A stretch of DNA of 64,000 nt from Stegostoma tigrinum (taxonomy: Eukaryota). The notes below the pieces were generated by a model, which worked only from the letters and a program-made list of their open reading frames with translations, ran no database searches and had not been told where the DNA came from. The stretch covers positions 20,544,629-20,608,628 of the forward strand of contig NC_081391.1 of the NCBI RefSeq assembly GCF_030684315.1, read 5' to 3'. Shown in pieces: positions 2,154 through 63,641 of the stretch. A program made the translations under genes and the position numbers. Within the stretch, counting starts at the first letter, position 1; every line of letters starts with the position of its first letter.

Positions 2154-3083
2154 TCAGTCTTCCCCGAGGGTGAGCCTGTCAAACAGGTACTCTCCTATGC
2201 CGTTGTCAGGGGCTCCCAGTCTCTTCAGGTTGGTGATGTGATCTCCCAGCTTCTTGATCATCTTCACTTGCTCATCCAAGTAGTGCCTCTCCAGGAAGTC
2301 ACACAGCTGGAGGAGCAAAGAAAAAAGTATGCAAGATTGAGTAATTAGTACAGATGGCTTTATTTGGGTTTCTAACATTGTTCTGGATAGGTACTGCAGC
2401 TGGTTATTTCCAGGAGGCCAGAAGTATTCCAATCGAACCAGACTTGCAGACCAACTCCAAGCTAATTTCATTCAACTGGGGAAAAAACCCTCAATTTATA
2501 CCCCAGCTACTTCAACATCACAATCCAACAGATTAGTCTGAGACAATTAGCACACTTATCCAAAAACACAGCCTTACATGGACCTTGACCGACATGGAGT
2601 GCGGGTCAGATTCTAGCATCACCTGCAGTTCCTCTGATAATTCATCGAGGACTTACATGAGGGCCCATGTGGCCAGAGGCCAGTTTGTGCAGATCCAGCA
2701 GACTCTGGTTCACATCCTTCTCCATCTGCAGAGCTCTCTCCATTGCCCCACTCCTCCTGCCCTGGCTTCTGGAGGGAGGGAAGGAGGTAGATGCTTCACT
2801 CATGTGAAAAAGAGAAAAAAAAAGTGTCATGCACTTGAGAATATAACTCAAGTAGTGCCATATAGCATTGTGGCATTGCCCCAGCAGAATGTAAGCTTCA
2901 ATTCCACATCTAGGTCATGACATTATAACGTAGGAGAATAAGACAACCTTGATGTCCTGCAGGAGGACTCGGCCTCCACGTTTATTCTGGAATGCCATCA
3001 GTCTCTCAGCGTGTTCCCGTTCCTCATGGGACTGCTCCTTGAAGAACTCAGCAAAGTGATGCAGGGCAACATCATCCCAGTCA
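2154..3083 (-). pseudogene. Ferritin copy 1, 5'-truncated pseudogene
   Basis: Exon4 2154-2306 ([15 protein letters not shown]...LTLGED*). Exon3 2657-2768 is 112 nt instead of 126 (14-nt frameshifting deletion). Exon2 2948-~3083 lacks its first ~11 nt and acceptor. No exon 1. AATAAA at 2049-2054. Confidence 0.93.
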
Positions 3084-3239
3084 CTTTGAAGCCAATAAAG
3101 TAACCAGTTTGTGAGACGTTGAGGTTTTTATTGAAGTTTGAATGATATAAGCACCAGAATTTCAGGGGTGGGGTGGCTTGGGGATTGGCAAGGGGGGATT
3201 ATTAGGGGGAACATGGGGCTGTGGTCAGTCAAGCTCCCA

Positions 3240-5250
3240 CTGAACCAGGGTTTTTAGTTTAAGCTTTCAGCAGTTGCTGAGGTTTTTGAGCTGGTCGTGG
3301 GAGCTCTTATTCCTCTCTCTGTTACAGCTACAAGCTGGGGGTTCTCCTCCGGCTTTTAGAATTGCATGTGAGACAATCTATTTCACTGAATCTGTCTTTG
3401 CCAAGGGTGTGTTTATGGGATGCCAAAACAATGGAGTAATTCATTAGTAACAGTTCATATATCTACTATTTTGATAAGCGTTTCATTAGGTAAGCAATAC
3501 CGTTCTTTTCATTTTGTCTATGTTGTGACTGTAGTGTAAAAATAATGTGTACTTTGCTGGAAGCCAATAGTTTGACCAATCAAATCTCACCTGGAACAGA
3601 ATGCCTTCCACTTACCTTTAAAATAAGAAAAAAAAAAATACAGCCTTAATGTATTTGGAGAGGATTTGGCCTGTTCCTCAACAAGAGGTACGAGCCAAAT
3701 AGGACTAATTCTTTTTGAGAACCTGGTTAGCACGGATGAATTGTTGCGAAGGTTCTGTTTTTGTGCTGTATCACTCTGTGACTCTGAGTAGTTTGGCCCT
3801 GGAACAGGTGGTGAAATGTGCTCCTTTGGAATTACCTCTGGGCTTGACAGGCCAGATGAGGGAGCCAGTGATTGACATCAGGATCCACCAATCACCATCC
3901 GCGCACATCTCCCCGAGGACAGACACCACCAACAGACACAGTTGACCTGCCCAAAAAGAAAAAGTGTCTGGAGATTGACAGATGTCCTGGTCAAAATGGA
4001 TCTGAGATACAGTGAATCTCCGGTGGTCACAAAGGGCTTTGTCCAAAGTAATGGACATTGCATAGTCATTCAATGGCCCCCAGAGACTTTGATGAATGAC
4101 TGTGGTGCCTGGCTCTGTGAGAATAGGTGGTGTTCCTGGCTTACTCCCTGGTTGTCTGAATAACCCATGTTCTTCTCAAGCCAACATCCAAATAAATACA
4201 CTGGATTTCCTGCAATGTTTAAGTTCTCACTTAATGGTTTATAGGGCATTTTTAAGAGTACAAAATTATGCAGGGGTTTTTCTGCCATATGTTTTTGCAG
4301 AGAACTCCGGAGTGATTACAAATTTCAGAACACGTGGTCATGGAAAGTTAAAGTAATCAAGACACTCTTGCAAGTCATCTCTATTCTGTAGATGTTTTAT
4401 TTTGGTCAGATGAAGTCTAATACCATTCAAGGCTAGGAATAGCTGTTCCAGAGTCAAGCACTGGCAGATGCTACTGGTTTGTAACAATTGTTCTGAACTG
4501 GTTTCCTTTACTGAGCTTTGTTCTTTAGAATGATTTGGTGGACGTACAGATGTCTTTCAGTCTCCTTCCATTTAGATTATTTCTCTGAAGCCATTCTAAA
4601 AACTTTCAACATCCACCCAGAAATTGATCGGTCATTTGCACCGCAAAATGAACTCAAGCCACATCTTCCAAAAAATAATCTAATATCTGATCATCAAAAC
4701 CCTTGTCATTACCAGACATGGTTATTCTTCCTAAACCTGCAGTGCCCAGTGCTAGTTTTGCAGCCTGCCAGTCTTTGTGTTCTTAATTGCCACAACAAAC
4801 AGTCTAGGCCTGAAGCATCAGCTTTTGTGCTCCTGAGATTTGCATTCATCCAGCTTCACACTTCATCATCTTGGATGCTCCAGCATCTGCAGCTCCCAGT
4901 ACCTGATTTTAATAGCCTTAACTCTGACAATGTCTGTTGAGTGCCAAATGTTAATTATGTTTTGTTGCTAGCCTTTTGCTCTTTAAAAGTAGCAGTTTGT
5001 TTTAAAAAAAGACAAAAACTTGGGATTTCCTTTCCAGTTCATTATGTTAGAGCTTTTTGAATAGCTTGTTTTAAGAGCTATTTTTGTGTCTGCAGATGTT
5101 ATTCTTGGGACGTTGAGACTATAGCCTAACAGTTGATGTTTCCCTCAACTCACATTTATAAAATGAGCACAAAAATCTATGCTTGCTTCAACCACAAACA
5201 TGTTGTTAGAATAAACCATCTGATGAGTGGCTAATACCTTACCCCCCCTC
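3240..5250 (-). mobile_element. Degenerate LTR-like segment plus Gypsy-like internal remnant, paralogous to 18910-21270
   Basis: Colinear similarity with 18910-21270, where an RT-like peptide is readable; boundaries approximate. Confidence 0.5.
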
Positions 5251-61987: not shown

Positions 61988-62132
61988 ATTGGCTCTGAAT
62001 CTCAGCTCCTCCTCCACATCCCCATCTCCTTTGTTCATTGGTGCCTGGGTGGATGGGCTATCCCTGATTGGCTGCCAGTATAATTGGTGACACCATTCCC
62101 TGGTCGAATGCAAGATATCTCAGCAGTACAAA
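61988..62132 (+). promoter_or_regulatory. Promoter of ferritin copy 9: four ATTGG boxes, variant TATA (TACAAA)
   Basis: ATTGG at 61988, 62037, 62067, 62083; TACAAA 62127-62132 at the TATA-equivalent position. Confidence 0.72.
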
Positions 62133-62201
62133 TGCCAGAGGTTGTGGGTGTGAGGTTTAATTTGAGATTAGTCTAGGTTATAGTGAGTTGGAATAGTGAG
62201 G

Positions 62202-63641
62202 ATGTCCTCCCAAGTGTGTCAGAACTACCACAAGGACTGTGAGGATGCTGTTAACAAGCAGATCAACCTGGAGCTCTATTCCTCCTATGTTTACCTCTCC
62301 ATGGTGAGCCTGGTGCTGCATTCTGAAATTTATTTGGGCTGTGTTCTGTTACACTTCAATTGATGCCATTTTGTTAGGAATTGGGAGCTGGTTGTTAGTT
62401 GTGTCGTTCATGCTTTTAGTGAGGAATGATGTTGAAGTAACTGTTGGTTACTGCACCTGACCTGCATTAAGACCTGATGTACAAAGCCCTTAACTGGGCT
62501 CTTGTCTACTCCTGAGCTAGGAAGCCTGGGTTCAAGTTCTGCCTGTTCCTCAAAAACAATACTTTCCGATCCACTCGTTTGGGAGTTTTATCTGGCCCTA
62601 ATTCAACTAAGGTCATATAACATAGTGGCAACCAAGTTGAAATTCCTAGACAAACCCATTTAGTCAACAAGTAACTGGTGAAATGTTGGGGATTCCCATG
62701 GGCTTGTTAAATCTGTTTGAAAGTTGCTCCTTTTATGTCTATTTACATAGAATGTGCTTCACTTCCCCCAAAGAGCTTTAATGCACCAAGCTGCTTTCTA
62801 AATCCCCCAAACCCAGTGAGATCCTGTGCCTGAGCTGTTCAGCAGCCTCTTGCACTGACTTTAAAGTTCCTGGCCACATTTTAATGGTTGAGCAAAGTAT
62901 TAAATCTGCAGGCTAATGGGCAGATGGTCCTCATCTTATAATAGTTTCAGTTATCTGAATACACAGATTTAAGCTGCTATCTTGACCTGAATGAGATTCA
63001 GAAATTGTAGAAGTGAAATTGAACCATCCCTATCTTTTGGCTGCTTTTTGTCTATATACCTGGAGGAAGTTTCAGATTTCTTTCTGTTTTCTGGTTCTTA
63101 TTGATTTTAAAGAACAGTCTCTAACAAGCAAAAAAAATCCAAATCTAATTATTAAATAAACATGCTGTCATTGGTTTTTCTCCTTTCCAATAGTTCTCTC
63201 ATTTTGACCGGGATGATGTTGCCCTGCGTAACTTTGCTGAGTTCTTCAAGGAGCAGTCCCATGAGGAACGGGAACACGCTGAGAAACTGATGGCATTCCA
63301 GAATAAACGTGGAGGTCGTGTCCTCCTGCAGGACATCAAGGTTGGTGTATCCTCCTACATTGTAATGACCTGAACTAGATATGGATTTGAAGCTTGAATT
63401 CTGCTGGGGTAATGTTAAATGGCCCACACTATTCCTAGATACCTTTTTTCAATCTCATTGCTTTGCACTCCCCCTTCATTTTTCACTGAAACATCTGTCT
63501 CTTCCCTCCCTCCAGAAGCCAGAGCAGGATGAGTGGGGCAATGGTTTGGAGGCAGTGCAGAGAGCTCTGCAGATGGAGAAGGATGTGAACCAGAGTCTGC
63601 TGGATCTGCACAAACTCTCCTCTGATTGCGTGGACCCTCAT
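62202..63641 (+). CDS. Ferritin copy 9, exons 1-3 intact; exon 4 presumably beyond the window
   Basis: Exons 62202-62303 ([15 protein letters not shown]...), 63194-63340, 63516-63641; GT-AG; open frame. Confidence 0.92.

Follow-up and report, generated by a model that had tools for sequence, protein, structure and literature searches.

Nine ferritin copies from a shark-wide gene cluster in the zebra shark, with alike exons, divergent introns and a probable role in dosage

The window analysed here is a stretch of 64 000 nucleotides (nt) from the zebra shark, Stegostoma tigrinum (NCBI RefSeq assembly GCF_030684315.1, contig NC_081391.1, positions 20,544,629-20,608,628 of the forward strand), which holds an array of ferritin genes; coordinates below are window positions. 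BLAST searches with the exons of the second copy returned six exon 1, nine exon 2, nine exon 3 and eight exon 4 matches (82-100% identity), which assemble into nine four-exon ferritin copies (C1-C9) between positions 2154 and 63641. Together with a frame check, this bore out an earlier reading of the sequence (the original prediction) in both the number of copies and their status: three intact (C2, C3 and C4), one cut by the window edge (C9), one headless but open (C8) and four broken (C1, C5, C6 and C7). That reading had counted a single headless copy. C8 is indeed headless, but C1 and C5 also lack exon 1; a profile of exon 1 and promoter found the same six exon 1 sites only. Nor do the copies form the single tandem row that had been supposed: C1-C5 (2154-33824) lie on the minus strand and C6-C9 (40246-63641) on the plus strand, so that the two groups point away from each other around 33.8-40.2 kb. 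None of the 23 expected introns has been lost; 21 have GT-AG borders and both exceptions are in broken copies. With four of nine copies broken and three headless, the gene death that had been postulated is evident. Tandem Repeats Finder reported two trivial arrays and nothing else in the window, and no neighbouring gene usable for synteny was identified within the 64 kb. The features are as follows.

1726-2153, minus strand: 3' untranslated region (UTR) and flank module common to C1, C2, C4 and C5, from flank alignment; counterparts at 6118-6523, ~22473-23041 (with an inserted repeat) and 30467-30733.
2154-3083, minus strand: C1, broken; without exon 1, start of exon 2 and its acceptor lost, exon 3 frameshifted by a 14 nt deletion, exon 4 open.
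6524-10894, minus strand: C2, intact, 175 amino acids (aa); exons 10894-10793, 7854-7708, 7565-7440 and 6676-6524; all introns GT-AG; AATAAA ~100 nt past the stop.
10895-11142, minus strand: promoter of C2, with a short leader; TATAAAT 75 nt upstream of the ATG, two reverse CCAAT motifs, no iron-responsive element (IRE).
15076-17997, minus strand: C3, intact, 173 aa; exons 17997-17896, 16446-16300, 16148-16023 and 15222-15076; its own 3' UTR.
17998-18260, minus strand: C3 promoter; TATAAAT 79 nt before the ATG, four reverse CCAAT motifs, no IRE.
23042-25680, minus strand: C4, intact frame, 176 aa; exons 25680-25579, 23923-23777, 23605-23480 and 23197-23042; Trp at position 60.
25681-25913, minus strand: C4 promoter; homologous block with three reverse CCAAT motifs, no TATA box, no IRE.
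30734-33824, minus strand: C5, broken; without exon 1, ferroxidase helix of exon 2 altered by a 6 nt deletion and by substitutions, intron 2 donor AT, poly(A) signal altered.
40246-42491, plus strand: C6, pseudogene; codon 4 is a stop, exon 2 is frameshifted and exon 3 has a 14 nt deletion equivalent to the one in C1; upstream DNA without kinship to the promoters of the other copies.
45503-45759, plus strand: C7 promoter; homologous block, TATAAAT 77 nt before the ATG.
45760-50855, plus strand: C7, oldest pseudogene; two stops in exon 2, intron 3 acceptor TG, frameshift in exon 4.
47094-49440, in C7 intron 2: remnant of a long interspersed nuclear element (LINE) that includes part of an endonuclease and an esterase-like ORF1.
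56125-57320, plus strand: C8, headless; open throughout exons 2-4, with GT-AG introns; a first exon was not found in the interval after C7.
61953-62201, plus strand: C9 promoter; homologous block, TACAAAT 75 nt before the ATG, four reverse CCAAT motifs, no IRE.
62202-63641, plus strand: C9, exons 1-3 open (62202-62303, 63194-63340 and 63516-63641); exon 4 expected past the window.

The downstream flanks that had been described as common to the copies are real (1726-2309 against 6118-6679, 79% identity; 1917-2326 against 30500-30905, 82%; 6340-6679 against 22857-23200, 92%), although they are slightly shorter than claimed and join only four of the eight copies that carry exon 4. The expectation that the array reaches past the window was supported by the retrieval of at least 24 distinct zebra shark proteins of the window's own type (type A, defined below).

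A search with the exon 4 protein gave 49 matches at E <= 1e-20 among 299 candidates, all of them from sharks. C4 is identical over 176 aa to the Stegostoma tigrinum protein XP_059496459.1; C2, C3 and C9 each show 96% identity to the best of the 24 retrieved zebra shark type A proteins. The ferritin domain PF00210 was found in P0103, a protein identical to C4, with 134 bits (cut-off 24.5). For P0103, folding from the sequence alone gave a model of too low quality for use (predicted local distance difference test score 50). The four exons and three introns of the copies fit the vertebrate ferritin pattern (PMC4117605).

The named shark proteins sort into four kinds: types A, B and C, and fth1a. 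Type A, to which the window family belongs, comprises at least 212 proteins, at least 5-51 per species, in all 13 shark species retrieved; type B comprises at least 65 proteins in ten of the 13 species, at least 25 of them from the zebra shark and none encoded in the window; type C is present as one or two proteins per species in 11 of the 13. These counts are lower bounds drawn from samples of at most 15 proteins per cluster, and they include isoforms, partial models and merged models. In the zebra shark, types A, B and C lie on one 26.87 Mb record and fth1a on another. The ray and chimaera clusters that were looked up had two members and one member, respectively.

In a tree of 55 rows rooted on three invertebrates, type A together with three rays and one chimaera formed one clade (support 100/95), sister to type B (98/82) and apart from the H (99/94) and C (100/95) clades. 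The H clade excludes type A, and fth1a, a distinct protein, is listed on a different chromosome record; the C2 protein is 75% identical to zebra shark fth1a. None of four alternative groupings was rejected by approximately unbiased (AU) tests (p = 0.21-0.42, with 0.30 for the position sister to H and 0.40 for the family joined with B, C and M), and the base of the tree did not resolve. To judge from these protein sequences, the family is a chondrichthyan-specific ferritin lineage, distinct from fth1a and only loosely M-like.

Several peculiarities of the public shark entries were recorded. The single-copy type C genes share a chromosome record with the arrays in several sharks (P0336, P0252, P0334, P0227 and P0246) and are placed weakly beside H (84/83); type C may be the parent locus of the arrays. 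Many models of 258-410 aa (P0011, P0189, P0190 and others) repeat exons 2 and 3 within one protein and are probably gene models fused across headless neighbours, real read-through splicing being the alternative. Two NCBI entries inside shark ferritin clusters are labelled as Salmonella ferritin (P0109 and P0331), probably through contamination or mislabelling. A few family members on other, larger chromosome records (P0083, P0202, P0212, P0217, P0232, P0138 and P0145) may be retrocopies.

The exons of the nine copies are far more alike than their introns. The proportion of synonymous differences (pS) ranges from 0.03 to 0.22 over the 36 copy pairs (median 0.11); between intact copies the nonsynonymous proportion (pN) is lower than pS (0.020-0.036 versus 0.056-0.110), and the GC content at third codon positions (GC3) is 0.67. 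In sensitive BLAST searches, by contrast, intron 1 was alignable in none of 15 pairs, intron 2 in four of 36 and intron 3 in four of 28; the same procedure, applied to simulated introns, recovered 100 of 100 when divergence was 11% or 22%, 90 when it was 33% and 36 when it was 40%. When the alignments were anchored on the exons, identity fell from ~0.9 in exons to ~0.25-0.35 within 10-20 nt of each splice site. Among the exons, exon 4 varies least; the 5' leader is not homogenized. Even where intron 2 can be aligned it is more divergent than synonymous sites, as found in three hand-picked pairs: C2-C3 (intron 2 differences 25/114 versus synonymous differences 6/108; Fisher p = 0.0004), C1-C5 (p = 0.005) and C1-C9 (p = 0.03).

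The modules of a copy also differ in their partners. Intron 2 groups C1/C5/C9 and C2/C3, intron 3 groups C2/C3 and C4/C7/C8, and the 3' flank groups C1/C2/C4/C5 (79-92% identity). The pseudogenes C1 and C6, on opposite strands and 39 kb apart, have the lowest pS of all pairs (0.033) and an unalignable intron 2. Their 14 nt exon 3 deletions (2657-2768 and 42003-42114) differ by one base and lie at a 7 nt direct repeat; the lesion was possibly spread by conversion between the inverted copies, but independent slippage at the repeat could also explain it.

Among sharks in general the paralogs cluster by order. In a tree of 204 rows, built from the 199 named proteins of 165-200 aa without X plus five window rows and leaving out unnamed proteins and the two Salmonella-labelled entries, 61 carpet-shark rows grouped with the five window rows (SH-aLRT 97), as did 24 sevengill (85), five horn shark (93) and 42 sawshark rows (83) among themselves. 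Arg132 occurs in all 61 carpet-shark paralogs, whereas 96 of the 98 paralogs belonging to five further orders have Thr. Because pS is low, the introns are unalignable and the paralogs group by order, we favour exon-limited gene conversion on top of birth-and-death. The simplest account of these sequences would be a set of old duplicates whose exons recombine with one another while loss continues.

Tyr31, which we take to be a ferroxidase-site residue, was counted as the seventh of the ferroxidase residues scored here. The other six (Glu24, Glu58, Glu59, His62, Glu104 and Gln138) were taken from PMC4117605. All seven, and both nucleation glutamates (Glu54 and Glu61), are kept in C2, C3 and C4. 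Across type A, all seven ferroxidase residues are found in 138 of 160 proteins, Glu54 in 160 of 164 and Glu61 in 159 of 164; the glutamate pair does not separate M from H, being present in six of six shark fth1a proteins as well. The intact proteins begin at the ferritin helix and no signal peptide is visible. Position 141, presumably part of the lining of the second iron site, is occupied by Met in 153 of 159 type A proteins, Ala in 13 of 13 type C proteins, Ser in six of six fth1a proteins and Asp in frog M; Met141 may alter ferroxidase activity. In type B, Lys59 occurs in all 42 full-length proteins and Glu138 in 28 of the 42 (including the P0241, P0226, P0230 and P0221 clusters); a Glu-to-Lys change of this kind marks the mammalian L chains. 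Two skate members (P0236 and P0238), unlike the shark copies, have lost ferroxidase residues (Asp58 and Gln62).

The promoters of five copies (C2, C3, C4, C7 and C9) share a common block and are 70-76% alike. TATAAAT lies 75-79 nt before the ATG in C2, C3 and C7, with a variant in C9 and none in C4, and each of the six exon 1 starts is accompanied by 2-4 ATTGG motifs per 300 nt against an expectation of 0.45. From the position of the TATA box a leader of ~50 nt is predicted. Rfam gave no match of any kind in the window; the nine loose IRE-like matches all lie outside the 300 nt that precede each of the six exon 1 starts, and none of five leaders folds better than its shuffles. The salmon H and M mRNAs all carry an IRE (PMC4117605). 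No antioxidant response element (ARE) consensus was found within 300 nt of the six exon 1 starts. The first exon of C7 (45760-45861) is open, with an intact donor and a TATA promoter, and could in principle splice into the headless C8 at 56125. Further, related retroelement remnants between and within the copies (3261-4460, 18920-20250 and 60961-61446) are of classes that we take to be CR1-like and gypsy-like.

For expression, 17 contigs of run X5 connect exons where GT-AG sites had been predicted (7854 to 10793), a junction for which any paralog could be the source; exact pieces of the 3' UTR were found for C2 (80 nt, 6411-6490) and C3 (116 nt, 14995-15110). X5 joints that connect different copies or pass over an exon probably reflect cross-mapping among paralogs and were disregarded; genes were not ranked by contig depth. 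Run X18, from the same study, gave little or no cover of the exon bins and was not used as expression evidence. In Dataset S4 of PMC13214024, 16 of the 18 FTH1b rows seen have zero fin reads and the other two have one read each.

The array had been presented as a surprise. It is in fact already known as a shark-wide cluster: the expansion has been published, and it is present in all 13 shark species retrieved. Sahm et al. (10.1101/2024.09.09.611499) report 155 'FTL' and 179 'FTH1' copies in the Greenland shark, ~80% of them in three clusters, with the same synteny in the white shark and an age of at least 250 million years (My); the largest cluster (104 'FTL' and 118 'FTH1' copies) is described as having ovary-specific expression. 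Types A and B may be the 'FTH1' and 'FTL' copies of that report. Yang et al. (PNAS 2026, PMC13214024) found generally more FTH1b copies in sharks, including the zebra shark, than in rays and elephant fish; in the Greenland shark they place 59 FTH1b genes in two tandem clusters and suggest a link to ferroptosis.

Our preferred interpretation, to which we give a probability of roughly 0.6, is that the window is part of this ancient shark ferritin cluster (the FTH1b of Yang et al. and the FTH1/FTL of Sahm et al.) and that amplification provides dosage of an IRE-free oocyte ferritin. Dosage as the pay-off, already suggested in the original prediction, is supported as likely. Old copies would mis-pair and recombine within exons by gene conversion and unequal crossing-over; this would keep the coding parts alike, shuffle introns and flanks, and leave headless and broken copies behind. 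The intact copies would be transcribed from TATA/CCAAT promoters into short-leader mRNAs which, as their anatomy and one paper suggest, would lack an IRE, so that ferritin output would be independent of cell iron and set by copy number and transcription. The likeliest use would be bulk cytosolic ferritin in oocytes, stocking and detoxifying iron for large yolky eggs; the ovary report of Sahm et al., the near-zero fin reads and the apparent lack of an IRE point this way, and from these we infer the oocyte role as the last step.

Several points weigh against this interpretation. The ovary evidence is one sentence in the Greenland shark preprint, and the runs used here carry no tissue label; some FTH1b expression in fin and blood is reported by Yang et al. 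(PMC13214024). Our link to their FTH1b is by copy number, chromosome pattern and coding-sequence (CDS) length, not by sequences. The IRE scans, run without a positive control and with transcription starts unmapped, may have missed an IRE carried by an exon far upstream. A role in simple storage would also be less straightforward if Met141 weakens iron oxidation, as it may. As to the exons, strong selection on synonymous sites may contribute to their likeness, and shark clocks are slow (median Ks, the synonymous divergence, 0.07 for a 141 My split, in 47 of 58 selected genes; PMC13214024), so that a low rate of conversion would suffice.

Plain segmental duplication with birth-and-death, as originally proposed, was not upheld: exons are alike while introns and modules are discordant, and recombination inside exons is therefore needed. 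The corresponding alternative holds that whole genes are duplicated and lost and that purifying selection, on synonymous sites too, keeps the exons alike without conversion. The broken and headless copies, the excess of pS over pN and the GC3 value all agree with it, and repeated re-expansion would also yield grouping by order. Recent whole-gene duplicates should, however, share introns, and intron 1 is shared by no pair; C1 and C6 combine the lowest pS and an equivalent deletion with unalignable second introns, and C2 has C3 as its partner in intron 2 but C1, C4 and C5 in the 3' flank. We regard it as unlikely. Homogenization of the exons by germ-line reverse-transcribed mRNA instead of DNA-DNA recombination would account for identity that ends at splice sites and for the uniformity of exon 4; LINE remnants occur in the array, and ovary expression would provide the template. 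The retention of every expected intron and the unhomogenized 5' leader speak against such templating, and sharp edges are also expected once introns have become too divergent to pair; we think it highly improbable. That the array is an assembly artefact of falsely expanded haplotypes deserves next to no weight. No long read or contig was seen to span the whole array, but the introns are unalignable and a public DNA run, possibly not independent of the assembly, gave cover in all 30 bins between 6300 and 26200 and has separate long pieces within the unique introns and promoters of C2, C3 and C4. On these grounds false duplication is very unlikely and the amplification is genuine, as had been argued; other shark assemblies also have many annotated paralogs on one chromosome record.

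The function of the array has its own alternatives. A somatic antioxidant or anti-ferroptosis device, sequestering iron rapidly in many tissues, appears quite unlikely, somewhat more so than plain birth-and-death. In its favour, a link with ferroptosis and tissue rich in polyunsaturated fatty acids has been proposed (PMC13214024), fthl27 of a snailfish, present in 14 copies, lowered reactive oxygen species (ROS) in transfected cells (PMC10746142), and ferritin, subunit unstated, is among the top eye and skin transcripts of a lantern shark (10.1101/364992). It is countered by the fin rows of Dataset S4, by the ovary-specific expression reported by Sahm et al., by an expansion found in every shark species retrieved whatever its habitat and by the absence of an ARE consensus near the exon 1 starts. 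The suggestion that the paralogs supply varied heteropolymer subunits was not supported among the copies studied. C3 and C4 do have several residues not shared with C2 and C-termini of other lengths, and their promoters have diverged, but their ferroxidase and nucleation residues are equal, most type A proteins keep the full ferroxidase set and the paralogs form no orthologous lines across orders; retention of type A paralogs for differing subunit properties is accordingly given very little credence. Subunit variety is more likely between types A and B than among the nine copies, and if the two types share expression the heteropolymer idea would hold between families. A broader proposal, possible but tentative, is a second, germ-line ferritin system in which co-amplified Met-tuned type A and Lys59 type B subunits, IRE-free and exon-homogenized for more than 250 My, would co-assemble in oocytes into a mass store of iron, an independent re-invention of the H/L pair.

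Neither gene conversion nor concerted evolution is mentioned in the main texts of Sahm et al. or Yang et al.; IRE, iron-responsive and ovary are not mentioned in the main text of Yang et al., nor iron in that of Sahm et al. Ferritin gave no match in the 12 whale shark supplement files examined, of 24 (PMC8455134), or in the excerpt of 10.1101/2025.02.19.638963. No paper devoted to the cluster was found, a weak blank as the same search missed both key papers. Exon-limited homogenization, the apparent lack of an IRE, Met141 and the Lys59 second family thus seem to be unreported in the two key main texts. In place of longevity or ferroptosis, proposed for the Greenland shark, these details would favour a reproductive iron store common to sharks. 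They would also offer a clear vertebrate case of exon-limited concerted evolution, testable across a dozen assemblies, and two natural ferritin variants (Met141 and Lys59) with directly measurable chemistry.

The clusters of Sahm et al. resemble the window array as an ancient clustered ferritin expansion, to which one paragraph is given; at least 90% identity to the human orthologs is stated there, a figure that contrasts with the 75% found between C2 and fth1a within the zebra shark. The FTH1b genes of Yang et al. are likewise many tandem genes on one chromosome apart from FTH1a, and in the rows seen the full-length models have 522, 528 or 531 nt, the CDS lengths of C3, C2 and C4; 5'-truncated copies number five of 59 there and three of nine in the window, and one family is treated where we find two amplified types and a single-copy gene. 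The fthl27 array of the hadal snailfish (PMC10746142) is another tandem fish ferritin amplification read in terms of dosage, but it is independent, recent, broadly expressed and tied to ROS protection, whereas the shark cluster is ancient and reported to be ovary-specific.

Among PDB entries, a whale shark family member scores highest against vertebrate M ferritin (frog M, PDB entries 1MFR and 4MJY; 280 bits against 269 for the best H), which, like the window copies, has the ferroxidase residues, Glu54 and Glu61, and four exons. It differs in that salmon M mRNAs carry an IRE and frog M has Asp141, whereas the window family has Met141 and apparently no IRE. The tree does not put the window family inside M. 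The mammalian Fthl17 cluster is also multi-copy, germ-line-expressed and without an IRE, but it consists of intronless retrogenes that lack the ferroxidase residues; the shark copies, in contrast, retain both introns and ligands.

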